Source: Candidatus Omnitrophota bacterium (GTDB lineage: Bacteria; Omnitrophota; Gorgyraeia; DTHP01). From it: DNA of 64,000 bases. Positions 290 to 18,471 of this stretch are shown piece after piece. Position 1 is the first letter of the stretch. Each line of letters opens with the position of its first letter. The DNA lies in the NCBI GenBank assembly GCA_023819145.1, contig JAMWCW010000001.1, positions 66,400 through 130,399 of the forward strand, given 5' to 3'. A program made the position numbers and the translations under genes. The notes under the pieces are model-generated. The model searched no databases, was not told the origin of the DNA, and saw nothing but the letters and a program-made list of their open reading frames with translations.

Positions 290-1210
290 ATGAAATTTAG
301 AAGAATGAAAATGGGGCTTGTTTTATATTTTGCTGTGGTATGGTCTTTTCTATCCGGTAGCTATCTTATCTTACCTCAAAAGAGCCAAATTATCTACGAT
401 AGGCTAAGTGCACGTAGAGTAAAAAGTGACTCTCGTTCAGATTACAATCTTACTTATTGTGCTCCTCAGTATTTTATTGATGGGATTAAAGAATTTATCC
501 CACCCTCTTATTACCCTATTGCTTGGCGGTTATATGAACATTTACGAACAGGTTATAGGGGGGAGCTGCTTTCTTCCGATTTAAGAACTGCATTTATCCA
601 ACTATTTAAGTATCATGGTATTAGGTCAATATTAGATTTGGGTTGTGGGAGGGGTAATTTTTTGTTTATGCTTCAACCTCTCGCTAAGGAAGCGGGGATA
701 GAACTGGTTGGTGTAGATTTAGAATTATCTCAAGATGTTAAAGAGAAAATGAGCAGGCTTGGTATTGAATTTTACGAGGGCGATTCCGAGGATTTAAGCG
801 AATTGGTGGGCAGGAGAAAATTTGACATTATTGTTGCGGCAGGAGTATTGGGGCAAGCTCAAATTTCTCTTTCTAAAGAAAATCTATCGCAGGCCCAAAA
901 GCAAAGCACGCATATTGCTCTTGCGGCAGTAGATGCATTAAGTAGTAATCCTTACGCAGTGTTTATTACCGCTTCAATATTCTCTTTTTTGTTTTTAGAA
1001 CGCAGTAAATTGGAAGAGATGGGTATTAGAATCGTTTATTGGAATAATGAAGAGATGAGGGTGAGAGAAGAGACGAGCTGGGATTCCATAGATGACCGCA
1101 TACGTGTTTGGTATGGGGAGAGATATTACGGGGAAGATTGTCCAAGTATTGGATTCTACAACCTATGGAACCAAAGCGCCAATGTTGCGGTTATGCAAAA
1201 ACGAAGATAG
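290..1210 (+). CDS. SAM-dependent methyltransferase-like protein with N-terminal signal-anchor plus RR leader motif
   Basis: Motif I LDLGCGRGNF (Rossmann MTase); N-terminal hydrophobic stretch GLVLYFAVVWSFLSGSYLIL followed by LSARRVKSD; ORF track 287-1210, ATG at 290. Confidence 0.5.
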   Translation: MKFRRMKMGLVLYFAVVWSFLSGSYLILPQKSQIIYDRLSARRVKSDSRSDYNLTYCAPQYFIDGIKEFIPPSYYPIAWRLYEHLRTGYRGELLSSDLRTAFIQLFKYHGIRSILDLGCGRGNFLFMLQPLAKEAGIELVGVDLELSQDVKEKMSRLGIEFYEGDSEDLSELVGRRKFDIIVAAGVLGQAQISLSKENLSQAQKQSTHIALAAVDALSSNPYAVFITASIFSFLFLERSKLEEMGIRIVYWNNEEMRVREETSWDSIDDRIRVWYGERYYGEDCPSIGFYNLWNQSANVAVMQKRR

Positions 1211-1361
1211 AATCTAAAGGGAATTATTCTCTAAAAAAACATCTTAAATAGATTATGGCGTAGTTGCAGGGTTTTACTTAAAAAAAGTCTTCCCGACTAA
1301 CTGAGTTGTTGATAGTTCGTCTTTCTTAATTTTTGTTAAGATTAGAGGGGGGATTCTAACT

Positions 1362-2210
1362 TTATTTTTTGCCACGCTCGGCAAGGATTTTATCCCAGAC
1401 CTCTCTTTGATATTGAGTGAAAAGTTCGTAAAGTCTTGACTCTAAAACTTTTCTTTCCCCTTCTTCGCTCCATAGTCTATAACTTTCCGAACAGAGCTTA
1501 AAAGCAATCATTAAAAGCTCATATTTATAACCTAATACTTCTCTTAAACGCTGCTCCTCTTTTTTTAGAGATTCTTCTAATTTTTCGTAGTCAATATTTA
1601 TCGCTTCATAATCAATTAAATAACCATCCTCGCCGGTTTTAGGATTATAATTTTCTCCTTCAATCCAGTGTTTACCTACGCGTCCATCATCTGCTTGTAC
1701 TGTATCCCGCGTATAGTCTATACCCCAGCTTTTGAGCTTAGGTAAAAACGGGGGGAGGGGCCTATATTTTTCTGCTTCTCCTGTCCAGGGATTCTGTACC
1801 CATCCGGAAGGAGGAGAGTCTTCCCTTCCTTCTGCATATTGATAGATATAGCAACCATCTTGGTAAAGGGTAAGAATATAAGGGACGTTTCTTGCTGGCA
1901 CTTCTCCCGTTAAGAACCAGTATTCATTCAAAAGAGCGCAAATAAGATGAATTTTATCTCCCCCTTTTGACTTGGCAATTAACAATAAAGGAGGACTAAA
2001 TTTTACTCCTTTAAGTTCTTCTATCTCAATAAAATCAACCTGCCCAACGCGCCAATTATTTGCTGCTTCGCGTATTTCTTCGGTGGTGATAAACGAGGGA
2101 TGAGTTTTTATTCTGCGTAGAGAAGAATAAGAGAGAGGTTCTATAAAGATAAAAAGAGCGTTAAATAATAGACTAAGCAAAGATAAGAGTAATAAAATTC
2201 TTGTTCTCAT
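1362..2210 (-). CDS. hypothetical protein of the RR-leader family (signal peptide then SLRRIKTHP)
   Basis: ORF 1362-2276 minus; internal Met MRTRILLLLSLLSLLFNALFIFI (start codon complement at 2208-2210) gives a typical n-h signal region; motif LSYSSLRRIKTHPSF follows; divergent to the PGK gene. Confidence 0.4.
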   Translation of the reverse strand: MRTRILLLLSLLSLLFNALFIFIEPLSYSSLRRIKTHPSFITTEEIREAANNWRVGQVDFIEIEELKGVKFSPPLLLIAKSKGGDKIHLICALLNEYWFLTGEVPARNVPYILTLYQDGCYIYQYAEGREDSPPSGWVQNPWTGEAEKYRPLPPFLPKLKSWGIDYTRDTVQADDGRVGKHWIEGENYNPKTGEDGYLIDYEAINIDYEKLEESLKKEEQRLREVLGYKYELLMIAFKLCSESYRLWSEEGERKVLESRLYELFTQYQREVWDKILAERGKK

Positions 2211-2260
2211 TTTTCTTCCCTGAGAAAATATAACACCTAATTTACCTAGCGTCAAGGGAC

Positions 2261-2292
2261 ACTTGACGATTTGCAAAAAGCGTGTTATATTT
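2261..2292 (+). promoter_or_regulatory. sigma70-like promoter (cccTTGACG -17- TATATT), copy 1 of a duplicated 29-bp promoter
   Basis: TTGACG 2264-2269, 17-nt spacer, TATATT 2287-2292; identical 29-mer CTTGACGATTTGCAAAAAGCGTGTTATAT recurs at 3913-3943; lies inside the over-long ORF 2271-3785, arguing that ORF's first 43 codons are not translated. Confidence 0.5.
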
Positions 2293-2399
2293 TAAACGAA
2301 ACTAAAATTCCTTTATCTAAGGATGCGGTAACTAATCTTTCCTTTAAGCTTAAATTTAGAACCCCTATAATTAAATACATAAAGAAGGTGTTTATACAA

Positions 2400-3785
2400 A
2401 TGTTATTGGTGAGGTTATTTTTGCTATTTGTTTTTGGTTTAGATGTATTATTTAATTTTTCTTCTTATTTATCTTGCCATAATTTTCTCTACGCATTACG
2501 CAGAAGTAAGCAAAGTAATATTTTTAGCTTAGGAATTGGTTCAAAGAAGACTATCGATGATTTGGGAGATATTTATGGCAAGGTTGTTTTAGTGAGGGTA
2601 GATTTTAATGTGCCTATTAAAGATGGACTTGTTTTAGACACCTATCGCTTAGAAAGAGCAAAAGAGACAATAGAAAATTTAACTAAGCGTGGTGCGAAGG
2701 TAGTTTTGATGTTTCATTTAGGCCGACCCAAAGGAAAGATTGTTCAAGAATATAGGATAGAACCGGTAATTGCTAAGTTTAGTGAAATGTTAGGCAAAGA
2801 GATTAAAATAGGTCCAGATGCCGTAGTAGGTGATGAATTAAGGGAGTTGGTTAGCAAGATGAATCCGGGGGAGGTAATTTCTTTACAGAATTTGCGTTTT
2901 CATTCCGGAGAAGAAAAACAAGATGAAGCCTTTGCGGAGGCAATTCTTAATTACACGAGGGCAGAGATTTACGTAAATGATGGGTCTGCCAATATGCACG
3001 GTAGCGACCAAGTGTCTGAAACTATCTTACCTCTCTTAATGCAGAGAAGAGGGCTTCCGACGGTTTTAGGAAAATTGGTGGTAGAAGAGTTTGGAATTCT
3101 GGAAAATTTTGTTAAGGGTGGTATAGATTTAGCCTTGTTTGGCGGTTCAAAATTTGAAAAGATTGAATCTATAAAGAATTTAGTGTCTAGTGGAAGAGTA
3201 AAAACTGTTTTTCTCTCGGGAGCAATGGCACACTTGTTCCTTAAAGCCAAAGGATTTGAATTAGGAAAGTCTAAAATTGACACAGAACTCGTGAGTGAAG
3301 CAGAAGAGATACTTGCTTTAGCCGAAAAGCGTGGCGTACGCATTGTGCTTCCTGTGGATGTGCGTTTAGATGATGGAAGTTTATTAGTTATTGCTGATAA
3401 AAAAGGAAATAAAATTGCTGATATACCGCCAGAAAGAGCCATTTGGGATATTGGAATTATTACTTTAAAAATGCTCAAAGACATGATGGAGATGATTCCT
3501 TCTTCAGGAAGAATAATTAGTAACGGCACCGCAGGATGGTTAGAAAAAGGTTTTCCTTTTGACTGGGGAACAAATGATATAAATAGAATGTTGATAAATC
3601 ATCCTGCAGAAAAATTAATTTTAGGAGGAGAAGGAGCTTTTGCTGCTTTGAATATGTTGGCTGAATATCAGGGAACACCTGAGCAGTTTAATATGACCAT
3701 TCTTACTGCAGGAGGAGCAGCACTTGCTTATCTAGCAGAAAGAGCGGATGAGCTTACGCCTTTTAATTATATTGATACGAAGTGA
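2400..3785 (+). CDS. pgk: phosphoglycerate kinase paralogue with N-terminal signal-anchor plus RR leader
   Basis: KVVLVRVDFNVPIKDG, KVVLMFHLGRPKG, IYVNDGSANMHGS, RIVLPVDV, LILGGEGAFAALN match PGK signatures; start moved to ATG 2400 (RBS aaagaaggtg at 2381-2390) downstream of the promoter; N-term MLLVRLFLLFVFGLDVLF...FLYALRRSKQS; the WNGPxGVFE region is divergent. Confidence 0.8.
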   Translation: MLLVRLFLLFVFGLDVLFNFSSYLSCHNFLYALRRSKQSNIFSLGIGSKKTIDDLGDIYGKVVLVRVDFNVPIKDGLVLDTYRLERAKETIENLTKRGAKVVLMFHLGRPKGKIVQEYRIEPVIAKFSEMLGKEIKIGPDAVVGDELRELVSKMNPGEVISLQNLRFHSGEEKQDEAFAEAILNYTRAEIYVNDGSANMHGSDQVSETILPLLMQRRGLPTVLGKLVVEEFGILENFVKGGIDLALFGGSKFEKIESIKNLVSSGRVKTVFLSGAMAHLFLKAKGFELGKSKIDTELVSEAEEILALAEKRGVRIVLPVDVRLDDGSLLVIADKKGNKIADIPPERAIWDIGIITLKMLKDMMEMIPSSGRIISNGTAGWLEKGFPFDWGTNDINRMLINHPAEKLILGGEGAFAALNMLAEYQGTPEQFNMTILTAGGAALAYLAERADELTPFNYIDTK

Positions 3786-3905
3786 TAATGAGTCGTAATC
3801 CGTAAACCGTAATCGGTAATTTGTAATAAAAAATAACGAACTCAACGAAATAACCAACTAAACGAAAATAACGAAATTAACGAACACAACGAACAAAATA
3901 TCATC
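3786..3905. repeat. composite microsatellite: 5 tandem 7-mers (CCGTAAT-like) followed by about 7 AACGAA units at 8-9 nt period
   Basis: tcgtaat ccgtaaa ccgtaat cggtaat ttgtaat, then aacgaact caacgaaa taaccaac taaacgaa aataacgaa attaacgaa cacaacgaa read directly; a related element occurs at 39095-39180. Confidence 0.6.
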
Positions 3906-4187: not shown

Positions 4188-6611
4188 ATGAAAGGTTCTA
4201 AAATAAAATTTTTCTTAGTTTCTTTTTTGGTGCTTTCTTTTAGTTTTGGTTTTTCTTTTTCCGGTGATTCTTCTTTTTTATTGAGAAGACTCAGAAGTGT
4301 TCCTGTAGGTTATTTACCATCTTCAGGGATAGAAGTGGTAGATGCATTAGATGGTATGGTGAAGGTAGAGATGATTTTGCCTCAAACTTTTGAAGAGAAT
4401 CCGGCGTTAGTTCCGACATTATCGGCTTTTTTTCGTGCTTTAAGCTATAACCGCGATATAGAAATCTCAGCGATTGTATCTCCTGTTTCTGCGGAAGAGT
4501 TGGCTAGAGCCATTCAGTCAAATTATGCGTTAGGTCCGTGGAGAGGGGTTAATGTAAGTGCTGAAGGAAACACCTTAATTATAAGAGGAATGGATACAGA
4601 GGTAAGAATACCTGTTTCTACAAGTTCTACAAGATCCACCGGCGGAGCCGATGTTTCTATCTGTCTAGGAGATGTCTCCCGTGCTCCTTCGATTCTTTCC
4701 GGGAAAAGAGCGCTTTATTTTCCTGTAGGAAGCATAACAACGCAAGAAGGAATAACTGCTTTACCTGGTTCTATTGGAGAATGGGATAGTGCGGTGGTTA
4801 ATGTTTCGGAACTTACAGGTTTAGCAATAGCTTTACAAGCTCTGAGAGAAGAATTAGGAGGTTTTGGGATGGTGGGTAGAATAGATGTATTTTGTCCGGA
4901 AGGGGATATGACTATTGTGCCTTCGGCAAAAGAAGCCGATGTTTCTGATTACCTTTCTTCTTTAGGGATAACCTCCCCGGGAATGAGAGTAACTCTTCAT
5001 ACCACAAAAATATCCGGAGATATCAAAGGAGCAAGACTGGTAGGAATAGTAATTACTTTTCCCAGTAAAGTTACCAAAGAAGATTTAATAAAAATATTTG
5101 AAGCGCATCCTTTATTAGGAGTTGCTCCTGAAAAAGATTCTACTTCGGCAATGTTTACCAACCCCTATGAGACAAAACTTTTTTATCTCAATACCGGTAA
5201 GACTGTGGTAGACGAGCTAAAAGATGGTTCTACCATGATAACTCTGCGTGGTTGGGTAGGGGATTATTCTTACGCAGGAATGATGATTTCTGCCATCACT
5301 GAGGTGGGACAGCGTTTGTCGGAGTTAGGTATTCTTTCTACCCAGAAGGCAAGTGTAATCTATCCGGCAGTAGAGCATCCTAAAGTTCAAGTTCTTGCTC
5401 AACCGAAGAGAGTTATGGTCAATGGGGGAGGAGGGAGAATTGGAGTAAATATTTTGAGAAGTCTTATCGGAGATCCTAATTTTGATGTGGTGGCGGTTAA
5501 CGGAGTGCGTAGTGCCGAAGCCTTGCGTCAGGGATTACTTTATGACGAAATACTAGGTCCTACGCGGGCGGTAATAGAAACCGGCAAGCAGAAGTTATTG
5601 GACGGGAGAGAGATAGAGTTTGTGACTATAAATGGCCATAAAATATATGTGTTTAATGCCCGTGAAGATGAAGAAGTGCGTCAACTTCCGTTAGGTGATT
5701 TGGGGATTGAGTATGTTTTAGAAGCAAGTGGCAATTATACTCAAACAAAGGATTTTGAACCTTTCTTTCAAGCAGGAGCTAAATATGGCTTTATCAGCGC
5801 TCCCGCAAAAGATAAAACTACTCCAGAGATTGTTCCCGGTGTAAATCCTGAAACTTTTGTAGCGATGGCAAGAGAAGGACTATCTCAAGTGGTTTCTTTT
5901 GGTTCATGTACTACAAATAATGCTGCTCCTGCCATAAGAGCAGTGCTTGATCTTTTAGAAGCAAGAGGATTGCAAGTAGAAGAGCAATTAGAAAAAGTCA
6001 CTTTAGAGACAGTTCATGCAGTAACCCAGACCCAAGCACATCTTTTACCAATTCAAATCAGAGACCCAAATAAAGAGCCTGAGAGAGCAAGAGCAGGAGC
6101 ACTTAATATTGTAGTTTCTAGTACTGGTGCAGCTAAAGTTATTCCTAAAATCATTGAAGAAATTGACAAAATGGAGGGAATAGCTTTGCGCGTGGGCAAT
6201 CCTAATGGTTCGGAATCGCAGATTTCTTTCTATTTAGATGGTAAATCGCCCGTGACCAAGGAAGAAATAGTTGCTTATTTACAAGAAAGAGCGAGAACTG
6301 ACCTCTTTAATATTTTAAGAGTAAATACTGGAGAAAAATTAGATTCCCTAGCGATAAACGGTTCAGATATTACTTCCATTGTGGAAGCTTCAACGGTGAA
6401 AGTTACTCCTCGTTATAATGATAAAGGAGAATATGTTGGCGATATGATCGTGCTTAATACTTGGTATGATAACGAATGGAGTTATACTCAACAGTACTTA
6501 AGGGGAATTATTATGTTTACCCTATTACTGGAGAACCCTGGTTTAACCCCCGAAGAACTCTTGGTGCGTAGTGACAGATTGGGTGTACATGCCTATGCTC
6601 CTATCCCATAG
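4188..6611 (+). CDS. glyceraldehyde-3-phosphate dehydrogenase-like protein: degenerate N-terminal GAPDH-like copy plus intact C-terminal GAPDH domain, with RR leader
   Basis: C-half: MVNGGGGRIGVNILR (NAD-binding GxGxxG), SCTTNNAAP (active-site SCTTNCLAP with second Cys replaced by Asn), NIVVSSTGAAKVIPKI, WYDNEWSYT all GAPDH hallmarks; N-half: LGPWRGVNVSAEGNTLIIRGMDTEVRI and TLRGWVGDYSYAGMMISAI echo the corresponding GAPDH segments but lack the catalytic motifs; start at ATG 4188 after RBS aaaggaggg; leader FLVSFLVLSFSFGFSFSG...FLLRRLRSVP. Confidence 0.75.
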   Translation: MKGSKIKFFLVSFLVLSFSFGFSFSGDSSFLLRRLRSVPVGYLPSSGIEVVDALDGMVKVEMILPQTFEENPALVPTLSAFFRALSYNRDIEISAIVSPVSAEELARAIQSNYALGPWRGVNVSAEGNTLIIRGMDTEVRIPVSTSSTRSTGGADVSICLGDVSRAPSILSGKRALYFPVGSITTQEGITALPGSIGEWDSAVVNVSELTGLAIALQALREELGGFGMVGRIDVFCPEGDMTIVPSAKEADVSDYLSSLGITSPGMRVTLHTTKISGDIKGARLVGIVITFPSKVTKEDLIKIFEAHPLLGVAPEKDSTSAMFTNPYETKLFYLNTGKTVVDELKDGSTMITLRGWVGDYSYAGMMISAITEVGQRLSELGILSTQKASVIYPAVEHPKVQVLAQPKRVMVNGGGGRIGVNILRSLIGDPNFDVVAVNGVRSAEALRQGLLYDEILGPTRAVIETGKQKLLDGREIEFVTINGHKIYVFNAREDEEVRQLPLGDLGIEYVLEASGNYTQTKDFEPFFQAGAKYGFISAPAKDKTTPEIVPGVNPETFVAMAREGLSQVVSFGSCTTNNAAPAIRAVLDLLEARGLQVEEQLEKVTLETVHAVTQTQAHLLPIQIRDPNKEPERARAGALNIVVSSTGAAKVIPKIIEEIDKMEGIALRVGNPNGSESQISFYLDGKSPVTKEEIVAYLQERARTDLFNILRVNTGEKLDSLAINGSDITSIVEASTVKVTPRYNDKGEYVGDMIVLNTWYDNEWSYTQQYLRGIIMFTLLLENPGLTPEELLVRSDRLGVHAYAPIP

Positions 6612-6644: not shown

Positions 6645-8798
6645 ATGCGGATAAGCAATTTAGTAAGAGTTATTTTTATTTTCTTTTCTGTTCAATTTTC
6701 TCTCTTTTCTGGTGAACTCCGGAATGGAGTAATCTTAATTTCTCGTCGGGCTAAGAATCAAGAATTTTTAATAGTGTCTCCCTTTCAAAAATTACTCTCT
6801 CTTTTAGGAAACGGATTACAAACTGGTCTTAACTTTGATGAAGGGATAGAACTTTTTCGCCAGATAGAGAGATTGCGCTTGTCTGTGGAGGAAACAGAAG
6901 ATTTTTATTCTTTTATAGCGAATAATCTTGTTGATTTTTTGGTAGTTTCAGAAAGGTCAGGAATTAGAATTGACCTTCTTGATATTCGCGACCTTTTCTC
7001 GGCAGCACAGAACTATGCTTTGGGGATAAGAAGAGATGAGTTGGGATTAAATAGGGGAGGAAGGGCTCTTTTAAATAAGATGTTAAGTGTTAAAGATATA
7101 AAAATCATTGGTGAACAGCTTTTAGAAGCACTTGACTCCTCTTTTAACAATGGCAGGATTGATAAAGCTAATTACCTGAAATATAGAGAGCGTCTTGAAA
7201 TTATTACTCTGATGGCTGGACTCTGGGCAACTTCACCAGTGAGTTCTAAGAGTATGCTTAGAGCTTTAGAAGGAGGAAATACCGCCATTATGGCCGCAAA
7301 TACCCAGATGTCGGTAAGTATTCCCGGACTTATGCTTGCTTCTTTAGAATTTGGAGCTCCCCTTATGTTTGAATCGGCAATGAGTGAAGTCAACCTGCAA
7401 GACCCAAATGACCCTGCGAAAATAGCTATTGGTTATATCGGTAGAAATCCCCAGGAATTTGCGGAAGTAGTAAGATACTATGCCTTTCTTTTAGGTTACG
7501 ACCTGCCTTATGCCATTCATGCTGACCACACCACAGTAAGTAAAGATACAGCGGAGGCAATTGACTATGCTAAAAGACTTAATCAAGCACAATTATCTGC
7601 AGGATATACCTCTTTTGCTATTGATCCTTCATCTCTTCCCGCAGTGAGAGAAGATACCCAGTTAAAAACGCTCAATGCCATGGAGGTGGAAGAGTTCTTG
7701 AGGCTTGGTTTTGATGAAAGTTTAGCAAAAACTTTAGCCGCGCGAGAATTTAAAAAATTAAAAGAACTCTCTTCTATTGAAGGAATAGACGAGAGAAAGA
7801 TCAATATTCTGATGGACTATATTGAGTCACAGATTCTAGTTGCAGTTTTGAATAAAATGGGGTATGAAGATTTGATGAGCATTCCACGTATGCCTGGAAC
7901 TATTGCCCGTGCCATTGTAGAGAACGGTCCGTTTACTTCCTTGGAAGAGCTAAAAGAAATTGATGGGCTGGGTGATGATGATATTTTCTATATTGAGGGA
8001 ATAGACAATGCGGTTCTTTTGTTTGATTATTTAAAGGCTTACTTAGATTTAAAGCGGATTATTGAGATAAATATAGAATTAGCAAAATTTATTCCTGAAG
8101 AGTTTGGTTTAGAGGTGGAAGTTGGTCATATTGGAAGAGTTGATCCACTGACGGGAGAGGCGGTGATGACTACTCCTTTAGAAGCGGTAGTTTTGATTGA
8201 AGCATTACAAAGATTTGGGATAAAACCACAGCTTTTGGCGGTAAATAATGGAACAAAACACGGAATTGTCTTCATTGGGGGTAAAGAGGTTCCTACGACT
8301 GTAGATGTAAAAAGAACCGATGAAATAGCGAGCGCTATAAGACCTTTAGGAGTTTCCCTTGCTCAGCACGGAACTACTGGTACGCCTTTTGAGGTTATAA
8401 AAGATCAACTTGCGGGAAATATCCTTAAAGCCAATGTAGGAACCGAGTGGCGGAGAACTGTTTTAAGAAGCATGCCTTTGGATTTATTCTATAGAATGGT
8501 AGAGTGGACAGTGGAAGAAGAAAAAAGGAAAGCTCCAGAGAAATTTTCTGGACTTCTTCCGGTAAGAAGTTATACACGTGAACAACTGCTAAGTTCAGAG
8601 TGTCCTTACTATGCTTTAATTATTGATCCTATAAAACGGGCAATAGGAGTTTTTAGAGCTGAAATTGATAATATTTCTGGTGAGGATTTGGATTTAATTG
8701 TAGAAACAACCCGCGAAGTAGCAAGAGAGTATTTTACTGCTTTTAATGCTCTAGAGAAAGTTTGGAAGATTGTAAAGTATTTGGGTTGGGGATGGTGA
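6645..8798 (+). CDS. class II fructose-bisphosphate/tagatose-bisphosphate aldolase-like protein with inserted HhH motif and RR leader
   Basis: Zn-ligand-bearing motifs AIHADHTT, EVEVGHIG, AVNNGTKHGIVF, LAQHGTTGTP...ANVGTEW align to class II FBA (HTDH, ELG, GNVHG, FHGGSG); ComEA-like helix-hairpin-helix IPRMPGTIARAIVENGPFTSLEELKEIDGLGD inserted; leader VIFIFFSVQFSLFSG...ILISRRAKNQ; RBS aaaaggagg. Confidence 0.55.
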   Translation: MRISNLVRVIFIFFSVQFSLFSGELRNGVILISRRAKNQEFLIVSPFQKLLSLLGNGLQTGLNFDEGIELFRQIERLRLSVEETEDFYSFIANNLVDFLVVSERSGIRIDLLDIRDLFSAAQNYALGIRRDELGLNRGGRALLNKMLSVKDIKIIGEQLLEALDSSFNNGRIDKANYLKYRERLEIITLMAGLWATSPVSSKSMLRALEGGNTAIMAANTQMSVSIPGLMLASLEFGAPLMFESAMSEVNLQDPNDPAKIAIGYIGRNPQEFAEVVRYYAFLLGYDLPYAIHADHTTVSKDTAEAIDYAKRLNQAQLSAGYTSFAIDPSSLPAVREDTQLKTLNAMEVEEFLRLGFDESLAKTLAAREFKKLKELSSIEGIDERKINILMDYIESQILVAVLNKMGYEDLMSIPRMPGTIARAIVENGPFTSLEELKEIDGLGDDDIFYIEGIDNAVLLFDYLKAYLDLKRIIEINIELAKFIPEEFGLEVEVGHIGRVDPLTGEAVMTTPLEAVVLIEALQRFGIKPQLLAVNNGTKHGIVFIGGKEVPTTVDVKRTDEIASAIRPLGVSLAQHGTTGTPFEVIKDQLAGNILKANVGTEWRRTVLRSMPLDLFYRMVEWTVEEEKRKAPEKFSGLLPVRSYTREQLLSSECPYYALIIDPIKRAIGVFRAEIDNISGEDLDLIVETTREVAREYFTAFNALEKVWKIVKYLGWGW

Positions 8799-10461: not shown

Positions 10462-11253
10462 GTGCGATATTTAATAATAAGAAAAATAGTAATTATTTTA
10501 TTTTTTTTGGCTCTTTCTCAGACAATAGTATTTTCTCCGGTGTATGCTCGCAGAGTGAAGTGGTTTGGGGGTGAGTTATCACTTCTTCAAGAAAATAATT
10601 TTTTTGTAGGGCTGGAAGATAGTTTGAAAGAGTTTGTTATTAAATTCGAGGATGCCAGAGTAATAAAATCTATCTCTCAGCCAGAGCCATTAGAAGGGGA
10701 TGCCCCTTTTGATTCCGGAGAAAAGATAGTTACCTATAAAATTGAGGTTTTGACAGATAAAGGGGTTAGCAGTTTAGTAGTGAAATTGGTAAGTAGCAGA
10801 GAAGCAAAAAATTTCTTAACTGCTTCTTTAAGGGGTGTTTCTCCAGGTCCAGCGATTTTTGTAGAACAGGGGTGGGAGAACAGAAATGGCGTTAGCGAAG
10901 GTTATTTAATCTATCGGTTCTTTGAAGGAGTGAAGTTAAGCGAAATTTGTAATCAGGAACAGGCAATTGATATCCTAAAGAATAATCTTTGGATTATTGA
11001 AGAATTAGGTATTAAACTTGCGAATTTAAAGAAAGCAGGGGTAAAATATAGAGATTTTTTATATTATAATACGCTTATTGATTTAGAAAAGAGAGCTCTT
11101 GTGATTGTTGATTACGGTGATAGGCATTGCGCTGATCCCTTTATTCAGGTAAGAGATTGGTGGTTGCCTTTGATGTTCAATACTGAACCCGAGATATTAG
11201 AGAAAGTTATTAGTTTATTTGTAGAAGTTTATCAGAGAGAATTAAATAATTAA
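10462..11253 (+). CDS. protein-kinase-like fold protein (candidate secreted kinase) with RR leader
   Basis: VVKLV (VAIK-like Lys), KYRDFLYYNTLID (HRDxxxxN catalytic loop), VIVDYGD (DFG-like); leader IVIILFFLALSQTIVFSPVYARRVKW; GTG start. Confidence 0.35.
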   Translation: MRYLIIRKIVIILFFLALSQTIVFSPVYARRVKWFGGELSLLQENNFFVGLEDSLKEFVIKFEDARVIKSISQPEPLEGDAPFDSGEKIVTYKIEVLTDKGVSSLVVKLVSSREAKNFLTASLRGVSPGPAIFVEQGWENRNGVSEGYLIYRFFEGVKLSEICNQEQAIDILKNNLWIIEELGIKLANLKKAGVKYRDFLYYNTLIDLEKRALVIVDYGDRHCADPFIQVRDWWLPLMFNTEPEILEKVISLFVEVYQRELNN

Positions 11254-11325: not shown

Positions 11326-13551
11326 ATGGGTATGAGGAAAATATTCATATTTTGTTTTATTCTCATAAAATTTGCCATCTTTTCATTTTCTTTTAATTTT
11401 TCCTCTTTAGAAATTATTGCGCATCGCAGAACTAAAATTTCTCCTTTAGTAGCAAATCATGAGTCTGTAAGGAAAGTTTTAGTAGATATTTTCTACAGAG
11501 CAGCAGGATTTCAAGGGGCTTTGCGCAGCGGAACAGCACAAGAACGGCGAGATATTTTAAACCAACCTGAGGTAAAGCGCGCTGTTTCTTTGCTCCAATA
11601 TGGTTTGAGTTTAGGAAGTACAACTTTAAGAAATCAAGTGGCTTATCTTGCTGAACGTTTAGGGATAAGCGCGAATCCCGCAGTAAATATTGGAATCTAT
11701 CAGGGAGAAGCCGAAATTTTTGATATTCTGGGAAATATCTTTATGCCTGAGGGAGATGGTTTAGTCTTTTATCAAAAAGGAACTGATAATCCCGAAACTC
11801 TTTTTAAGCCTTTTTTGGCTCGCTATGGAGCCAAAATATTTGAATTTGACCCTTACTTCGTAGAGCGCAATTCTACTCCCTCCTATTCTACAGAATTAAG
11901 CGGTTTTGAAGCGCTGATTTCTTTAGCTATTCAAGAGGGACAAAATCCGCGTTTTATCTATCTTAGCGGAAAAGGTTTAACCGAAGCGCAAGCAAGAAGA
12001 ATTTATGCTTTGGCAGAAACTTACAATCTTATAATTATTGAGGATATTACCAACGCAAACCCTACAGATTATCTACTTTCTGCAAACGATTCTCAAGGGA
12101 GAGTAATTTCCATCGGAAATTTTGACAAGTATTTAGGGGCTGCAAATCCTTTAAGTTATGCCATTGCGGGAGAAGAGATTATGCGTCTTATGGAAATTGC
12201 TATTGGCGGGATAAGTCTTCATCCCAATGCTTTTATTCAGCCGATAGTCTCGGAAATTTTAGCCCAAAACGGTATACCTTTCTCGGTAAATGTTTCCTAT
12301 AAACCCATCACTCTTTCTGAGAGTGTAAAAGCAATTCTTGCTTCAACAGGTGCAGACCAGCGCTTAAAACCCTCCATCATTAGAGAAATTCTTAAAGGGG
12401 CAGTTTCGGATATGGTGCGTATGGGAGGAGGGGTTCCTGCCGAGGAGTTCTTCCCTTATGTGGAAATTGCCCAGATTATAGAAAATATGAGCCCTGAGGA
12501 ATGGGAAAAGGTAATGGCTGGGGACCCGGCGATTAATTTAGAGTTGCGCAGTGTTTTTTGCCGGTGGCTTGAAGAAAGAGGAATAAAAGCTGACCCCCGT
12601 CAGGTTTTGGTAACCAATGGGAGCCAGCAGGGTTTGGATTTATTGGGAAGATGGGTGGGAAAAGAAGGAGTTGTTTTTGCCGAATCTCCTACCTATGTAG
12701 GAATGATTACGGGAGTTGCTCCTTACGGAGGCCTTCCTTATGGTAGAAATATTCGGCATTGGGATTTACGCACACTCACTGGATTAGAGAATTTAGAGAA
12801 AGAAATTGAAGAGAACTATCGAGGTAAAAAAATTGTTTTATATGTTACACCAAACTTTGGTAATCCTCCTTCAGGGAATATGTGGACGATTAGCGAAAGA
12901 AGGAATCTTCTGGCTTTTGCCCAGAGGATGCGCTTAAAGGGATACGATTTGCATATTGTAGAAGATGATCCTTATGGAGAACTAAATTATACTGGTCAAA
13001 GAATTGTAGATATCAAAGAGTTGGATACAAACGGAACAGTAATTTATTTCAACTCCAATTCCAAAGTCTTTTCTCCGGGAATGCGTGTGGGGTACATTGT
13101 GGCTGATGAGAAAATAATTCATGAATTTGCTTCTCTTATGGATGAAGTAGGTTCTTTTGTTCCTACACTCCCCCAACTTATTATTACTAAGTTTATCGAG
13201 ACAGGAGCGATGGATAGACATATTGAATTTTTGATTGGTGAATATTCAAAACGTGCACGGGCAATGGAAGAAGCTTTAGAGGAATTTATGCCTGAAGGTG
13301 TAACCTGGACAAAACCTGAGGGAGGGTTATTTATTACTTTAACTGTTCCCTGGGATATAGATTTTATGGCCATGCTTGAGGAGGCCAAAAATTACGCGAT
13401 TCCCTTTAACTTTGTTCCGGGTATCGCCTTTAGTGTGGATGGCTCAAGTGCTCATAAAATTCGTCTTTGCTTTTCCACAGAGTCTGAAGAAAGAATAACC
13501 TTAGGTATTAAGGCTTTTGCGGAGTTGATAAAAAAACACCTTGGCCAATAG
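11326..13551 (+). CDS. PLP-dependent aminotransferase (class I/II fold) with N-terminal degenerate aminotransferase-like domain and RR leader
   Basis: C-half: LVTNGSQQGLDLLG, NSNSKVFSPGMRVGYIV (SxSK...R PLP-lysine motif); N-half has similar architecture (IYLSGKG...IIIEDI, SIGNFDKYLGAANP) without the full motif; leader FIFCFILIKFAIFSFSFNFSS...IIAHRRTKIS. Confidence 0.5.
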   Translation: MGMRKIFIFCFILIKFAIFSFSFNFSSLEIIAHRRTKISPLVANHESVRKVLVDIFYRAAGFQGALRSGTAQERRDILNQPEVKRAVSLLQYGLSLGSTTLRNQVAYLAERLGISANPAVNIGIYQGEAEIFDILGNIFMPEGDGLVFYQKGTDNPETLFKPFLARYGAKIFEFDPYFVERNSTPSYSTELSGFEALISLAIQEGQNPRFIYLSGKGLTEAQARRIYALAETYNLIIIEDITNANPTDYLLSANDSQGRVISIGNFDKYLGAANPLSYAIAGEEIMRLMEIAIGGISLHPNAFIQPIVSEILAQNGIPFSVNVSYKPITLSESVKAILASTGADQRLKPSIIREILKGAVSDMVRMGGGVPAEEFFPYVEIAQIIENMSPEEWEKVMAGDPAINLELRSVFCRWLEERGIKADPRQVLVTNGSQQGLDLLGRWVGKEGVVFAESPTYVGMITGVAPYGGLPYGRNIRHWDLRTLTGLENLEKEIEENYRGKKIVLYVTPNFGNPPSGNMWTISERRNLLAFAQRMRLKGYDLHIVEDDPYGELNYTGQRIVDIKELDTNGTVIYFNSNSKVFSPGMRVGYIVADEKIIHEFASLMDEVGSFVPTLPQLIITKFIETGAMDRHIEFLIGEYSKRARAMEEALEEFMPEGVTWTKPEGGLFITLTVPWDIDFMAMLEEAKNYAIPFNFVPGIAFSVDGSSAHKIRLCFSTESEERITLGIKAFAELIKKHLGQ

Positions 13552-13608: not shown

Positions 13609-14769
13609 ATGAAGAAATACTTAAGAATTAGAGGGATATTTATTTTAGTAGTATTTGTAGTATTTTTATTTACGCTTTTGATTCCTGTAAAACATTCCTT
13701 GGCTTATCCCAGGAGTTATCCTTATTTAGTTTCTAATTCATTACCAGCTTTTTCCGCGCGAGGGTTTAATGAAGCGCTCTTAGCGCGAGTTTTGCGCGAG
13801 ATTATCATTATCTATAAATTCTTGGCTCAAATCGAAAGGGTTCTTAATGAAAGAGGAGAAAATGATTTTCCATCTTTAGGTAGGGTCATCGGAGACAGAC
13901 CTCAGGAGAGAGAAAATTCCCAAAATACTCCCCCCAAAAGAAGTAATTTAAGGGAAGAACCTGCGGGTAACCGTCATCTAGACCCAGAAAATCCTTCGGC
14001 AAAACTACCAGAAGGGTCATCTTCGTCACCTGCTGGTTCTCTAGGAAAGATAAAGATTGCGATTATTGATATTGACTCTAAGCACGCCGCAGAAGTAAAG
14101 GCGGTAATGGAAGAGACAATTCGGCGTAAGAATCCCGGGGCAAAAGTAGAAATTCGTACCATTATTCTTCCTGGCAAATGGCAAAGGGATGGTTCTAAAG
14201 CGGTGGCTACCAGTGATATTTTAGACGCTTTTGCAGAAGCCAAAGCTTGGGGCGCAAAGGTAATCAATATGAGTATTGGTGCACAAGGAGGTGTAGACGG
14301 TATAGTGCTTAGTGCCTTACGCGACCTTTCTGAAAGTGGCATTCTGGTAGTAGCGGCATCAGGTAATGAAGGTAGTTATGATGCTTGGGGGCAAGCTGGC
14401 CGATATGTCTTATCAGTGGGGGTAAGAGGTGCACCTTATTCCAATACCGCTGATTTATATGTCGATTGGGGAGAGCTTCCACCTGGATTAGAAGGCACAT
14501 CTTTTGCTGCTCCGATTATTGCTGCGGAAGCGGCTTTAGCCTGGTTAGAAAACCCTTCCCTTAACTTGGCAAGTTTGCCTTCTCAATTAGGTTCACGGGA
14601 CACAGTTTATGCCCGGAGTAATCCTCCGCAAAGAAGTTCGCAGGGGTTTCACACTTCGGCAATAGAGTTTGTAAGGCCACCTGTTGTTTTTTATACGCCG
14701 GTGGAAGAAATGCCTTTTTACGAACAGAGTTTTTATTCGCCTGTTGGCTGTTTTCCGTCTTTTTGGTAA
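13609..14769 (+). CDS. subtilisin-like serine peptidase (S8 family), signal-anchored, no canonical HGTH motif seen
   Basis: AIIDIDS (Asp box), VINMSIGA, VAASGNEGS (oxyanion Asn), GTSFAAPIIAA (catalytic Ser box); start at ATG 13609 after RBS agggggg; N-term LRIRGIFILVVFVVFLFTLLIP; no RR motif after the hydrophobic segment. Confidence 0.55.
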   Translation: MKKYLRIRGIFILVVFVVFLFTLLIPVKHSLAYPRSYPYLVSNSLPAFSARGFNEALLARVLREIIIIYKFLAQIERVLNERGENDFPSLGRVIGDRPQERENSQNTPPKRSNLREEPAGNRHLDPENPSAKLPEGSSSSPAGSLGKIKIAIIDIDSKHAAEVKAVMEETIRRKNPGAKVEIRTIILPGKWQRDGSKAVATSDILDAFAEAKAWGAKVINMSIGAQGGVDGIVLSALRDLSESGILVVAASGNEGSYDAWGQAGRYVLSVGVRGAPYSNTADLYVDWGELPPGLEGTSFAAPIIAAEAALAWLENPSLNLASLPSQLGSRDTVYARSNPPQRSSQGFHTSAIEFVRPPVVFYTPVEEMPFYEQSFYSPVGCFPSFW

Positions 14770-14876: not shown

Positions 14877-16064
14877 ATGAAAAATAGTAGAGGAAAGATT
14901 TATGTTATGTTTTTGGGTTTGTTATTTTTCTTTCTTAACTCATTATTATATTTAGACTTATCTGCGGGATGCTCTTTCCGGCGAATCAAAACTCAACCTG
15001 CCAAAGAATCTGCGCTGGTGCTTTTTTTCCACGAATTAGGTAGAGAAGATATTTTTTTAGTGGGAGGAAAAGGGGCAAATTTGGGAGAACTTTCGCATAT
15101 TGCCGGGATAAGCGTTCCCGAGGGGTTTGTAGTTACCACCACCGCTTTTCAAAAATTTTTAGATGCCAACCCTGGATTACAAGATAAAATTATCAGGATT
15201 ATAAATAGTATAGATTGGGATACCCCTTCCAGTATAAACTCTGCTGCGGAAAAGATAAAAGAAGCGGTTTTGCGTGCGAACATGCCGCGAGAGATTATTG
15301 AGATGATTAAAGCAGGTTATGGCCATTTAGAAGAGATCTCCGGAATAAAGGATGTGCCCTGTGCTGTAAGAAGTTCGGGAGTTGCTGAGGATTCTCCTAA
15401 CTTTTCTTGGGCAGGTCAATTCCGCACTGAATTAAATCAGAGGGGAATATATCAGGTTTTAGAGGCGGTTAAATTAATCTGGGCAGAGTTGTATAATCCT
15501 GATGCCCTTACCTATGGACATCAGAATGGTATCGACCCGCGCAAATTTTCTATGGGAGTGGTAATTCAGCGGATGATAAATTCAGAGAAATCAGGAGTGG
15601 CTTTTGGACTGGAGTCCGATACAGGTTTTCGTGCCAATCCCGGAGGAATGGAAGGAGTTTTTTATATTGAAGGGGTTTATGGTTTAGGTGAAGGGATGGT
15701 GCAAAATATTCAAGAACCTGATGGATTTTTGGTAGTAAAGATGCCTAATGGTGAATTTAAAATTATTGAACGCATTTTCGGTTCCAAAAGAGAACAGATA
15801 GTTTATCGGTCTGGAATGAGTGGGACAGAGAAAACTTCGGTTCCCGAAGAATGGCGTCAGAGATGGGTTTTTTCAGAAGCAGAGGTGTTAGAGATTGCTC
15901 GTGCAGTTTTTGCCTTAAATAGCCACTATAATCATCCCCAGGATGTAGAATTTGCCTGGGAAGGAGGAAAACTATACATATTACAATCACGCAATGAGAC
16001 AGTTCATGCAGATAAACCAGTAGATTTAATTGAATGGAGAAAGTTTAGAATTAACCTTAAATGA
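14877..16064 (+). CDS. PEP synthase/pyruvate phosphate dikinase N-terminal nucleotide-binding (ATP-grasp) module, separate ORF, with RR leader
   Basis: LVGGKGANLGELSHIAGISVPEGFVVTTTAF matches PEP-utilising enzyme N-terminal signature; RBS gaggagg; leader VMFLGLLFFFLNSLLYLDLSAGCSFRRIKTQP. Confidence 0.75.
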   Translation: MKNSRGKIYVMFLGLLFFFLNSLLYLDLSAGCSFRRIKTQPAKESALVLFFHELGREDIFLVGGKGANLGELSHIAGISVPEGFVVTTTAFQKFLDANPGLQDKIIRIINSIDWDTPSSINSAAEKIKEAVLRANMPREIIEMIKAGYGHLEEISGIKDVPCAVRSSGVAEDSPNFSWAGQFRTELNQRGIYQVLEAVKLIWAELYNPDALTYGHQNGIDPRKFSMGVVIQRMINSEKSGVAFGLESDTGFRANPGGMEGVFYIEGVYGLGEGMVQNIQEPDGFLVVKMPNGEFKIIERIFGSKREQIVYRSGMSGTEKTSVPEEWRQRWVFSEAEVLEIARAVFALNSHYNHPQDVEFAWEGGKLYILQSRNETVHADKPVDLIEWRKFRINLK

Positions 16065-16083
16065 AAAAAGGGGGAGATAAATA

Positions 16084-18471
16084 ATGAAGTGGTTACATGT
16101 TAAAATTTTTTGGAGTATTGCCTTTTTAATTATTGCCAGCCTACTTTATGTTGATAATCTTTTTATGTTTTCTTCTTTAGATTTTATTACAAGAAGAGTA
16201 TTAACTCCTTCTTATACAGATTCTCCTTCGGTTGAGGTTCCCTCCGGTTCTCCTAAAATAATTGCCCGTGGAGAAGGGGTAGGTGCTAAAGGAGCGGGGG
16301 TAGGACGAGTGGTTATCATTGATGAAAATAGTTCCATCCCTATTCGTGAGCAGGCAATGCGTGTGCGCGAAGGAGATGTACTTGTTGCTTATCGCACCGA
16401 TCCTTCTTTGGTGGATGCCATGCGCCGAGCAGGTTTGGTGATTACTGAAATTGGAGGGAAAAATTCTCATGCTGCGATTGTCGCTAGAGAATTTAATTTA
16501 AATGCGGTTATTGGTGTGCCCAATGCTACGCGTATTTTTGCTCAAGGGCAGGTAGTTACTGTTGATGCTGAGCATGGAGTCATTTATGCTGGAGCTTTGC
16601 CGCTTGAAGAAGATAGTGTTTCCTATCGCGTGAGTGAACTTCCGTCTACGAGCCCTGTAAAGATAGGGATACTTTCCTTTGATACTGCTCGGGTGAGAGC
16701 GATGTTTCCTTTGGGTTTGTATTCTGATTTTTACGGTATAGGGCTGATGCGTGCAGAGTTTGCTTTACAAAATATTGGCATCCATCCGTTAGCAATATTG
16801 GATTTTGATAGAGGTACGCTTAGAGATGCAAGGCTACAAACAGAAATTACGCAAAAAATCAAAGGCTATGCGAGTGCGCGAGACTATTACATCTCAAAAC
16901 TTTCTTCTGCAATATTTTCCAATTCGCTTATTCTACATGAGGGGCAAAAGGTTATTTACCGCACCACTGATTTTAAAACCAACGAATATGAAGATATGTT
17001 AGGAGGGGATGTTTACGAGCATAAAGAGCCCAACCCCATGATGGGCAATCGCGGTTTACAGCGAATGATTAGTCCTGAATACCGGGAAGCATTTGATATG
17101 GAACTCGAAGCATTTTTACTTGCCTGGAAAGATAATCCGGGAAAGATTTCTATCATGGTTCCTATGGTACGCACTCCCCAAGACCTTCTGACTTTTCGTC
17201 AAATTCTTGAGGGAAAAATAAGGAGTATGGGGCTCTCGGGTATGCCTGAGGTAGTAATGATGTATGAATTGCCCGCGAATGTTTTTCAGATAGAGGAATT
17301 TATTCACGCCGGTATAAATGGTATTTCCATTGGTTCAAATGACCTGACACAATTTATTCTGGCAGTAGACAGGGACAGTGGTTTATTTAGAGAAGGAGGT
17401 AGAGAAGAATATGATGCCGTAAATAGAGCAGTATTGCGTGCTATCGGCATCGGTATAACTTCTTCTAAAGCCCGCGGTGTAAAAACAGGTATTTGTGGGC
17501 AAGCGCCATCAGACCATCCAGATGTTTATCCTGCAATTCTTACTGCTTTAGGAATAGATTCTATAAGTGTTACTCCCGATGTGTTTCATAAAGTGGTAGA
17601 AGCAGTAGCCCAAGCACAACAAAATCCTTCTTTTGGGATGAGATACCTTTCGGGTTTAGATTTATTTTTAGGCTACGATACCCAGACTAATCCCAAACGA
17701 GAATTAAAGAAGATAATTAGTTCTGATGATATACTTCGGAGTATTGGCATTCATCCTTTAGCCTTACTTGCCTTTGACCGGGGAAGTAGTTTATTGAGTG
17801 ATACGGCGATAAGTAGGCAGATTGTTTCTTTTGCCGGAGAAGAAACTGCAGAACGGGCTTACTTTGACCGTGTATATAGGGCGGTAAAGAATGCTTTACT
17901 TATGGATGGAGAGGTAGTTTATAGAACAGGAAGTTTGCTCAGTACCGATTATAAAACGCTTGTGGGAGGAGATATTTTTGAAAAAGAAGAAGCAAATCCC
18001 TTATTGGGTGCGTTTGGAATGTACCGCCTGCTCAGATATGGTTCAGAAGATGGCGCTTTGAGTATGCGTGATATTTTTAACATAGAGATGGATGCAGTTT
18101 TAAAAGCTGTGCGGGATACCGGTAAAGTTATTCATTTAGAGTTAGATATGGTGCGCACTTTTGGAGAATTACAGGAGGCAGTTTCTGTGATTAATGAGGC
18201 AATACGCCGTACAGGGATTTCTCCAGATAAGGTGAAAATTGGTCTAAATGTTTCTACTCCGGCAAATGTTCTGCTTATTTCTGATTTTATTAACCAAGGG
18301 AGATTAAGTTTTGTGAGTATCGACGAAAAAAGGTTAGCCTGTTATCTTTTGGGGGTGGATTCCTTGAGTATGGTTAGCCCCGAGGCTATTGAACGAGCCC
18401 TATATATACCTCGTCAACTGGTTTATACAGCATTAGCTCAAAAGGGAATCCCTTTAGTTAACTCCCCCTAA
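16084..18471 (+). CDS. PEP synthase/PPDK phosphohistidine swivel domain plus PEP/pyruvate-binding TIM barrel, followed by a degenerate second TIM-barrel copy, with RR leader
   Basis: GGKNSHAAIVAREFNLNAVIGV (mobile His domain), GLMRAEF, MVPMVRTPQD, SIGSNDLTQF (TIM-barrel motifs); second copy GIHPLALLAFDRG, LDMVRTFGEL, LSFVSIDEKRL lacks NDLTQ; leader IAFLIIASLLYVDNLFMFSS...FITRRVLTP. Confidence 0.75.
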   Translation: MKWLHVKIFWSIAFLIIASLLYVDNLFMFSSLDFITRRVLTPSYTDSPSVEVPSGSPKIIARGEGVGAKGAGVGRVVIIDENSSIPIREQAMRVREGDVLVAYRTDPSLVDAMRRAGLVITEIGGKNSHAAIVAREFNLNAVIGVPNATRIFAQGQVVTVDAEHGVIYAGALPLEEDSVSYRVSELPSTSPVKIGILSFDTARVRAMFPLGLYSDFYGIGLMRAEFALQNIGIHPLAILDFDRGTLRDARLQTEITQKIKGYASARDYYISKLSSAIFSNSLILHEGQKVIYRTTDFKTNEYEDMLGGDVYEHKEPNPMMGNRGLQRMISPEYREAFDMELEAFLLAWKDNPGKISIMVPMVRTPQDLLTFRQILEGKIRSMGLSGMPEVVMMYELPANVFQIEEFIHAGINGISIGSNDLTQFILAVDRDSGLFREGGREEYDAVNRAVLRAIGIGITSSKARGVKTGICGQAPSDHPDVYPAILTALGIDSISVTPDVFHKVVEAVAQAQQNPSFGMRYLSGLDLFLGYDTQTNPKRELKKIISSDDILRSIGIHPLALLAFDRGSSLLSDTAISRQIVSFAGEETAERAYFDRVYRAVKNALLMDGEVVYRTGSLLSTDYKTLVGGDIFEKEEANPLLGAFGMYRLLRYGSEDGALSMRDIFNIEMDAVLKAVRDTGKVIHLELDMVRTFGELQEAVSVINEAIRRTGISPDKVKIGLNVSTPANVLLISDFINQGRLSFVSIDEKRLACYLLGVDSLSMVSPEAIERALYIPRQLVYTALAQKGIPLVNSP

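Follow-up and report, generated by a model that had tools for sequence, protein, structure and literature searches.

Described N-terminal signals and sorting motifs offer several partial likenesses to the element considered here, a leader in which a hydrophobic core is followed by a twin-arginine (RR) box and which stands at the start of 11 proteins encoded in a 64,000-nucleotide (nt) stretch of contig JAMWCW010000001.1 of a Candidatus Omnitrophota bacterium (the window; L- and P-numbers below denote the compared loci and the compared proteins). The twin-arginine translocation (Tat) signal peptide has, like the leader, a near-invariant RR, with a small residue (mostly Ser) shortly before it and a basic residue soon after, and its cargo is typically folded and cofactor-bearing, as is the type of cargo found behind the leader; the Tat RR, however, lies before the hydrophobic core. 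Signal peptides of the general secretory (Sec) pathway that are processed by signal peptidase I (SPase I) share the n-, h- and c-region layout, and the core of the leader has the length and hydrophobicity of the ordinary signal peptides encoded locally, but the leader is without an AxA motif in fixed register, bears two or three positive charges after the core and is attached to cytoplasmic-type cargo. The lipobox and prepilin (G↓F, the arrow marking the cleavage point) classes resemble it in having a class-specific short motif at the junction of leader and mature protein. Kexin and furin pro-sites and the leader subtilases (PatA, LanP, QhpE and mycosin) provide the parallel of a dibasic site in a flexible segment with an exported S8 peptidase encoded alongside, although the S8 peptidase of the window resembles classical subtilisins, and kexins accept KR where RR is strict here.

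Outside the bacteria, the PEXEL, TEXEL (RRLxx) and RxLR elements place a short Arg motif after the signal peptide and mark a secreted subset of proteins for cleavage and export beyond the cell. These elements belong to the eukaryotic endoplasmic reticulum and Golgi, involve aspartyl proteases and follow another consensus, and their likeness to the RR leader is one of logic only. Eukaryotic compartmentalized glycolysis, whether directed by glycosomal peroxisomal targeting signals or by plastid and mitochondrial presequences, likewise spreads one tag across a block of glycolytic enzymes, and we know of no bacterial precedent for such compartmentalization. Within the phylum itself, the giant proteins of the Omnitrophota ('Archaeovorins') contain the same kinds of module (FBA, FBPase, TPI and PPDK) and pose the same puzzle of metabolic domains predicted outside the cytoplasm; they join many modules in chains of >5-10 thousand residues, unlike the leader enzymes, which are separate genes each with a leader of its own.

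Set beside these systems, the RR leader is firmly established as a translated, conserved, Arg-specific, two-part N-terminal element that marks one class of proteins. In the loci compared it is confined to normally cytoplasmic enzyme families. The typical secreted proteins of the same loci (the S8 peptidase, two large proteins of 1378 and 2015 amino acids (aa) and the lipoproteins) carry AxA sites or lipoboxes and no RR, and other cytoplasmic enzymes of the window, a ROK-family protein and glycosyltransferases, carry no leader. A first, sequence-only reading of the window had quoted ten RR motifs, all of which are found in the translations of the genes to which they were assigned, and Pfam agrees with its labels for the MTase, PGK, GAPDH, FBA, PFK, aminotransferase, S8, PEPS-N and PEPS-C genes. 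The label 'kinase-like' is weak, its sole basis being one NCBIfam match to Bud32 (E=5e-4). The leader genes encode 263-813 residues each, SAGCSFRRIKTQPAKE being one example of an RR-box peptide, and they are given here with their neighbors.

290 to 1210, plus strand: S-adenosylmethionine (SAM)-methyltransferase-like gene (MTase), RR leader LSARRVKSD (RR codons 413-418); Pfam Methyltransf_31/12/25.
1362 to 2210, minus strand: protein of unknown function, leader SLRRIKTHP (Met at 2210, RR codons 2112-2117); the sole minus-strand gene of the cluster, with no Pfam or NCBIfam match.
2400 to 3785, plus strand: PGK paralogue, leader YALRRSKQS (Met at 2400, RR codons 2499-2504); Pfam PGK at 1.5e-76; the L003 orthologue has SLRRSKQ.
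4188 to 6611, plus strand: GAPDH-like protein, leader FLLRRLRSVP (RR codons 4284-4289); Gp_dh_N and Gp_dh_C at residues 414-745 of 813, with an additional N-terminal region of ~370 residues and a ribosome-binding site before Met 4188.
6645 to 8798, plus strand: class II FBP-aldolase-like (FBA-like) protein with an HHH_3 insert, leader LISRRAKNQ (RR codons 6744-6749); Pfam F_bP_aldolase and HHH_3.
8869 to 10407, plus strand: PFK with pyrophosphate (PPi)-type signatures, leader FSFRRIHRN (RR codons 8959-8964); Pfam PFK.
10462 to 11253, plus strand: small kinase-like protein, leader VYARRVKW (RR codons 10549-10554), weakly matched to Bud32/RIO-type kinases; FARRIKES in the orthologue L003:13924-14823.
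11326 to 13551, plus strand: class I/II (MocR-like) aminotransferase with an additional N-terminal region, leader IAHRRTKIS (RR codons 11425-11430); Pfam Aminotran_1_2; all orthologues in L001, L003, L004 and L005 have the leader.
13609 to 14769, plus strand: minimal S8 subtilase, lacking an RR box, its signal peptide of the ordinary kind (HSLA↓YP); Pfam Peptidase_S8.
14877 to 16064, plus strand: N-terminal (ATP-grasp) half of phosphoenolpyruvate (PEP) synthase (PEPS-N) with its own leader CSFRRIKTQP (RR codons 14979-14984); PPDK_N at 2.4e-91.
16084 to 18471, plus strand: C-terminal half of PEP synthase (PEPS-C; mobile His and PEP-binding domains) with its own leader FITRRVLTP (RR codons 16192-16197); PEP-utilizers and PEP-utilizers_C, and NCBIfam PEP synthase.
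19002 to 23138, plus strand: 1378-aa repeat protein with an ordinary signal peptide (VEA↓K), as context; no significant family match.
23396 to 29443, plus strand: 2015-aa protein with an ordinary signal peptide, as context.
60162 to 61886, plus strand: asparaginase-like protein, leader FARRIPSY (…LSAGDICFARRIPSY; RR codons 60240-60245); Pfam Asparaginase and Asparaginase_C.

The leader can be regarded as translated in view of the GGAGG-like ribosome-binding sites that lie 4-10 nt 5' of the leader Met in most of the 11 genes, and corrected starts do not strip the N-terminal extensions away, an eventuality the sequence-only reading had considered. No ribosome-binding site was seen before the MTase and kinase-like starts. 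A purine-rich agggaag directly precedes the ATG at 2210, and the orthologue of this minus-strand gene, L003:371-1303, retains the leader (INRRARTPQ). Consecutive plus-strand genes of the cluster are separated by intervals of mostly 19-107 nt, with a single 384-nt exception. The open reading frames (ORFs) listed as 1362-2276 and 2271-3785 run 5' beyond the probable start codon.

The RR-box logo derived from 44 non-redundant leaders has N/D/Q at -6, L/Y/F/C at -3, S/I/A at -2 and L/F at -1, followed by R, R, V/I/A/T, K/R/H/Q and T/S, and Pro is frequent two or three residues beyond the box. Met and RR are 26-41 residues apart, mostly 29-36, and in 45/45 leaders RR stands C-terminal to the apolar run, 5-25 residues beyond its end (median 12). 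The intervening spacer is polar (N/D/Q/S), carries a net charge of 0 to -2 and measures 12 residues in the median, and basic residues occur on both flanks of the hydrophobic segment. The shared N-terminal module with its twin Arg C-terminal to the core, as described from the sequence alone, is real, and its layout is kept in the orthologues. The accompanying description of a signal anchor with an 18-25-residue stretch did not hold: the median length of the longest apolar run is 14 residues (45 leaders), and on the Hessa scale the most favorable 19-residue window has a median insertion energy of +1.7, with values above 0 in 36/45 leaders, a range equal to that of the ordinary signal peptides (S8, giant proteins, lipoproteins) in the same loci. 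With fewer than ~19 residues, these energies and a modeled helix of 15 residues, a single-pass signal anchor was rejected. A basic n-region, an h-region of ~7-15 residues and a polar c-region make up the Sec signal-peptide layout, which the leaders fit, and the hydrophobic core looks like that of a signal peptide and not like a membrane anchor.

An AlphaFold2 model of the window PFK (9-sequence alignment, mean pLDDT 85, the predicted local distance difference test) has a helix at residues 2-16, pLDDT<50 at residues 12-37 with RR at 31-32, and a folded body from ~41. Because the model shows this arrangement, the RR box is placed in an exposed linker ~9-10 residues before the enzyme, and it constitutes a dibasic site in an exposed segment N-terminal to the mature domain. 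A second hydrophobic segment is absent from every carrier. AxA stands in no fixed register to RR, and only some of the leaders have a Ser-rich spacer that could supply an S-x-S site. In 8/44 leaders there is a Cys at -1 or -3, without a lipobox.

Neither Pfam nor NCBIfam has a model that matches the leader region, and the leader belongs to none of the Tat, lipobox or prepilin classes, as had been proposed from the sequence alone. A Tat signal peptide was rejected on three grounds: RR follows the core in 45/45 leaders, the consensus differs from S/T-R-R-x-F-L-K, and there is no hydrophobic segment beyond RR. A lipoprotein (SPase II) signal was rejected in that the leaders have no [LVI][ASTVI][GAS]-C, and real lipoboxes are present in the window at 30419, 49207 and 54698. 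A separate gene at 58900-60069 encodes an AmmeMemoRadiSam radical SAM enzyme (TIGR04337, 377 bits) with a Tat-like N-terminus, MKFNKPLTRRNFIKK (TRRNFIKK), and a hydrophobic core; such a start is odd for this enzyme, and it demonstrates that the genome also has the normal order of Tat elements.

The association of the leader with these genes is far from random, and it is specific to Arg. A detector that required a 15-residue hydrophobic window with RR <=40 residues after it, both within the first 110 residues, selected 11/39 ORFs of the window and 5/636 ORFs of loci from unrelated phyla (Fisher P=2e-11). When the count was restricted to ORFs with an N-terminal hydrophobic segment, and RR was sought no more than ~28 residues after it, RR was present in 46/77 ORFs from Omnitrophota loci and 4/126 controls (P=3e-20); among the same 77 ORFs, KK was found in 2, KR in 4 and RK in 5. 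Across the leader tests, P values ranged from 2e-11 to 1e-29. The genome uses Lys more often than Arg, and both RR positions draw on all six Arg codons; the excess of Lys and the varied Arg codons therefore point to Arg-specific selection at the level of the protein. A nucleotide-level cause, such as a conserved codon pair or a pausing site, was ruled out by the use of all six codons.

The leader is likewise a feature of other Omnitrophota loci. The sequence-only reading had accepted that its proposal would fall if the motif were not enriched beyond the block at 290-18471, and this objection fails because syntenic clusters and extra families elsewhere carry the leader. Syntenic leader clusters are present in L001, L003, L004, L005, L007, L009 (Ca. 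Saelkia tenebricola), L028 and L030, and in these eight clusters all genes bear the leader except the S8 peptidase and a 1403-aa repeat protein; the flanking hyp and hydrogenase genes have no leader. The PFK orthologues P0002-P0009, at 33-77% identity, keep xxRR[VIAT][HKR] in 8/8 (RK in one) while the hydrophobic core has diverged, and the FBA-like orthologues in L004, L028 and L030 all have the leader. Further carriers comprise a TIM (L007), an FBPase_glpX protein (1430 residues, L004), an FBPase_3 protein (L088), PEP-utilizers-domain proteins, an FBA-PFK fusion (L007) and several proteins without a Pfam match. PEP synthase, which occupies two genes with two RR leaders in the window (14877-18471), occurs unsplit in L088:3945-7409 as a 1154-residue protein with one leader; L091:2-3175 is another PEP synthase locus that was compared with the split pair.

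A 45-position leader profile searched against 1.84 billion representative proteins returned 5 matches at E<=1e-3, 4 of them at the N-terminus, and these 4 look like the window's own proteins, judging from length and sequence; the leader is too short to be mined by profile search. A keyword search of Omnitrophota papers, both giant-protein preprints among them, found no mention of the RR box.

The genomic setting of the clusters recurs. The cluster comes after hypD and hypE in L001 and L028, and a Fer4_22 gene lies 3' of it in L001, L004 and L009; in L001 and L009 the remainder of a membrane-bound [NiFe] hydrogenase operon comes next (L001:401-5022 and 15578-21764; L009:9807-15925; L028:876-3179; window 62079-63134). 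In the window, the asparaginase-like carrier is located 42 kb off the block and directly 5' of the Fer4_22 gene at 62079-63134, and it is all that is left of the leader cluster at the Fer4_22 position.

The cargo consists of divergent enzymes of cytoplasmic type, in agreement with the sequence-only reading, and their NCBIfam scores are all far under the equivalog cut-offs. The window PFK, aligned to PFKs of the PDB, keeps the catalytic TIDxD and has GGDD and KTIDGD in place of the GGDGS and GTIDND of ATP-PFK, which are the signatures of PPi-dependent PFKs. Cys149, His176 and GxGxxG are retained in the GAPDH (alignment to 1dbv), and the FBA-like protein, which has no match in the PDB by phmmer, keeps the three metal-binding His motifs HADH, TKHG and QHGTTG as judged by eye. 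From these residues, the cargo proteins look like working enzymes that would need ADP/ATP, NAD, Pi or PPi, SAM and pyridoxal phosphate (PLP).

A PFK family with an extra N-terminal domain of ~90 residues, with GGDD/KTIDGD and without the leader occurs in Gracilibacteria, Peregrinibacteria and Peribacteria (Candidate Phyla Radiation) and in Altiarchaeota, in loci (L010-L020, L022-L025, L027, L029, L032 and L036) where the other cluster genes are not neighbors. This distribution suggests that the PFK family has moved horizontally among ultra-small or episymbiotic lineages. According to one study, pfkA is found in 176/176 Omnitrophota genomes at a relaxed threshold only (10.64898/2026.06.07.730766), and the window-type PFK may therefore be the sole PFK, whereas the sequence-only reading had supposed a housekeeping set elsewhere in the genome.

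The PFK domain is also embedded in giant Omnitrophota ORFs, namely L021:2-21460 (>7152 residues, with two PFK domains in tandem), L026:1-5310 and L031:2-13516, with sizes that include >4504 residues. No hydrophobic stretch with RR occurs between the domains of these three ORFs, and with no such internal modules the leader was ruled out as an inter-domain cleavage cassette. When the PFK region of L021 served as query, only partial or smaller proteins came back, some of which are PFK-module proteins with ordinary signal peptides. In P0076, P0077 and L094, from another lineage, PFK or a combination of FBPase_glpX, FTHFS and AlaDh follows ordinary AxA signal peptides (ELAFA↓VQ, DIAFA↓AN and LVSA↓QS) in proteins of 1.2-2.4 thousand residues. 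The lineage of L094:10029-17276 and P0077 has proteins of 1-2.4 thousand residues that join FBPase_glpX, FTHFS, Glucosamine_iso and AlaDh, and others with His_Phos_1, Glyco_transf_5 or PFK and HEAT domains; in P0073 and P0074 the PFK domain is paired with a starch-synthase domain (PF08323). The leader enzymes correspond, as free-standing proteins, to the metabolic modules of the giant proteins. In the first giant-protein preprint, TPI, GPI, FBPase, PGM and FBA domains are predicted to be extracellular, and the giant proteins also hold PPDK domains and, near their N-termini, S8 domains (10.1101/2023.11.21.568195). The second places metabolic modules on the extracytoplasmic face and treats topology as unresolved (10.64898/2026.06.07.730766).

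The S8 peptidase, encoded beside the leader genes, is a protein of 386 residues whose catalytic D154, H159, N253 and S298 are invariant in 8 homologues, and its signal peptide ends S-[LF]-A↓Y across the homologues. The gene adjoins a leader-family gene in 6/6 contexts with a different neighbor each time: the aminotransferase and PEPS-N, the kinase-like protein, a 270-residue protein, a gene of L088, the FBA-like protein and PEPS. A conserved Asp in its GxDAW loop aligns beside subtilisin G166, the floor of the S1 pocket, and the catalytic His is flanked by acidic residues; these acidic features would suit basic P1 and P2 residues. Classical subtilisins have ~30 residues between the catalytic Asp and His, and in this protein the loop has shrunk to D-x4-H. 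The close homologues (P0059-P0064) mostly end in a conserved aromatic, as …FW, …LW, …GW or …VW. Among PDB entries it matched AK.1 protease and subtilisin BPN' best, and its NCBIfam matches, to mycosin, PatA and QhpE, are weak. Membership of the kexin/furin subfamily was rejected, there being no C-terminal P domain within the 386 residues.

The three meanings put forward in the sequence-only reading, a sorting signal, a dibasic pro-site and surface or tethered glycolysis, are the hypotheses still in play. The reading we favor, at roughly even confidence, is Sec export with the RR box serving as a second recognition or cleavage site. A Sec-type signal sequence would bring the protein to and through the cytoplasmic membrane, and the RR box in its flexible segment would be a second, Arg-specific recognition element, a role assigned to it because there is no AxA site in fixed register. 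The box would give the enzyme set a common later step, most likely a dibasic cleavage that releases the enzyme; the candidate for making this cut in this sub-lineage is the minimal S8 subtilase, itself exported. Sorting onward to the cell surface or to prey may also occur. We infer each of these four elements, that is, export, cleavage, the identity of the protease and the destination. Export is favored because the core is like that of the local signal peptides and lacks the strength of an anchor, because the box, exposed and specific in sequence, occupies the place expected of a cleavage site, because an exported subtilase tracks the carriers, and because related bacteria place such enzyme modules behind ordinary signal peptides.

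Several points weigh against this reading. To our knowledge, the ATP/ADP, NAD, SAM and PLP that the cargo requires have not been described in any bacterial periplasm, and PFK and GAPDH keep their catalytic residues and are not obvious pseudoenzymes. In E. coli, Sec export is inhibited by two or three positive charges shortly after the signal peptide, although the 1378-aa protein of the window has a net charge of +3 right after its AxA site, which counters this objection. A kexin-type protease normally takes KR too, and RR is nearly invariant here. The S8 family is also narrow (9 matches, the named ones from Omnitrophota) and is missing from the sequenced flanks of the distant clusters L001, L004, L009, L028 and L030, and the peptidase is therefore not a universal reader of the RR box. 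It is syntenic with two large proteins in the window and L085, or with at least the 1378-aa one in L003, and it may serve these large proteins instead of the leader enzymes.

The S8 gene is followed by that of the 1378-aa protein in the window, in L003:16525-20736 and in L085:11393-15643, and then by that of the 2015-aa protein in the window and L085. The 1378-aa protein has VRTQV(I/V) right after its AxA site and a second copy ~30 residues on. The two motifs noticed in the sequence-only reading, KVRTQVI and RVRTQVI, are real; the echo of the RR box that it heard in them is weak, with the orthologues keeping VRTQV or VSTQV and never RR. A relationship of KVRTQVI to the RR box is doubtful, the likeness being limited to [VI]-[KR]-T-Q, which few leaders share. 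The remainder of the 1378-aa protein consists of long YNxxG-type beta-rich repeats without a Pfam family.

The main alternative, possible but somewhat improbable, holds that the leader is a tether on the inner face of the membrane, in which the core engages the membrane, RR-x-K blocks translocation and the enzymes form a fermentative assembly on the cytoplasmic side; in a variant, the RR box may dock on a common membrane scaffold. The cargo reads well in these terms as a coherent, cofactor-dependent pathway (PPi-PFK, FBPases, FBA, TIM, GAPDH, PGK, PEP synthase, aminotransferase and methyltransferase), with catalytic residues retained in both enzymes that were checked, PFK and GAPDH. Basic residues lie on either side of the hydrophobic segment, and the block that positive charges after the signal impose on Sec in E. 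coli would here be the function of the box. Synteny with a membrane-bound [NiFe] hydrogenase, whose active side is expected to be cytoplasmic, points the same way, as does the PFK, which would necessarily be cytoplasmic if it is the only one of the organism. It is also predicted that 46% of long Omnitrophota proteins are membrane-anchored with cytoplasmic domains (10.64898/2026.06.07.730766). The anatomy of the leader argues otherwise: at a median of 14 residues, with 36/45 energies >0 and a modeled helix of 15 residues, the core has neither the length nor the strength of a stable anchor, and the polar, acidic spacer that precedes RR (median 12 residues) does not resemble a positive-inside flank. 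The strictness of RR and its conserved neighbors point to a specific reader and not to generic charge, and homologous modules elsewhere stand behind ordinary cleavable signal peptides. Linkers of ~10 residues would, in addition, be ill-suited to holding every subunit of a tetramer on one membrane plane.

An address label for a second cytoplasm-like compartment, be it an organelle, an energized periplasm or the cytoplasm of attached prey, where a parallel glycolytic/gluconeogenic trunk would run, is quite unlikely in our estimation and in part overlaps with the export reading as its most ambitious form. The tag does cover nearly the whole trunk from fructose-6-phosphate to PEP, ordinary secreted proteins bear another signal, and the clusters adjoin large surface-type proteins. 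The Omnitrophota include epibiotic predators, and the orders Aquiviventia and Omnitrophia encode ATP/ADP translocases (PMC10066038). The cluster, however, encodes no translocon, organelle marker or delivery system. That the leader is an artefact or chance product, untranslated or functionless owing to mis-called starts or compositional bias, has next to no probability: the genome is AT-rich (~38% GC) and two ORFs were overextended 5', but the ribosome-binding sites, the short intergenic gaps, a layout kept at 33-77% identity, P values of 2e-11 to 1e-29 and the variation among synonymous Arg codons all speak against it.

In the wider window, with a GC content of ~38%, almost every gene is plus-strand. 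Each 2-kb bin of 1-64000 has a positive GC skew and the large ORFs are all plus-strand but one, a pattern consistent with a single replichore with strong strand bias. The 2015-aa protein (23396-29443) has 14 Gly in a row and a long acidic, coiled-coil-like C-terminal region. Beyond it, an IS200-like Y1 transposase (29623-30276) adjoins a 139-residue lipoprotein (30419-30838) that is a fervidolysin-type subtilase pro-domain, and this free-standing pro-domain could act as the inhibitor or chaperone of a subtilase.

It is doubtful, though it would be the most consequential outcome, that a catalytically competent glycolytic/gluconeogenic set is sent by an as yet unknown signal class to an energized extracytoplasmic compartment or to attached prey. 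Should this be true, part of central carbon metabolism would run outside the cytoplasm of its producer. The leader would represent a new N-terminal signal class beside Sec/SPase I, lipoprotein, Tat and prepilin signals, and its strict twin Arg on the 'wrong' side of the core implies an undescribed reader. A leader of 45 residues on enzymes of 260-800 residues offers a tractable entry to the puzzle that giant proteins pose with their extracytoplasmic metabolic modules. Membrane-tethered glycolysis and exported glycolysis would each be unusual for a bacterium, and either bears on the energy supply of these ultra-small, possibly predatory cells.

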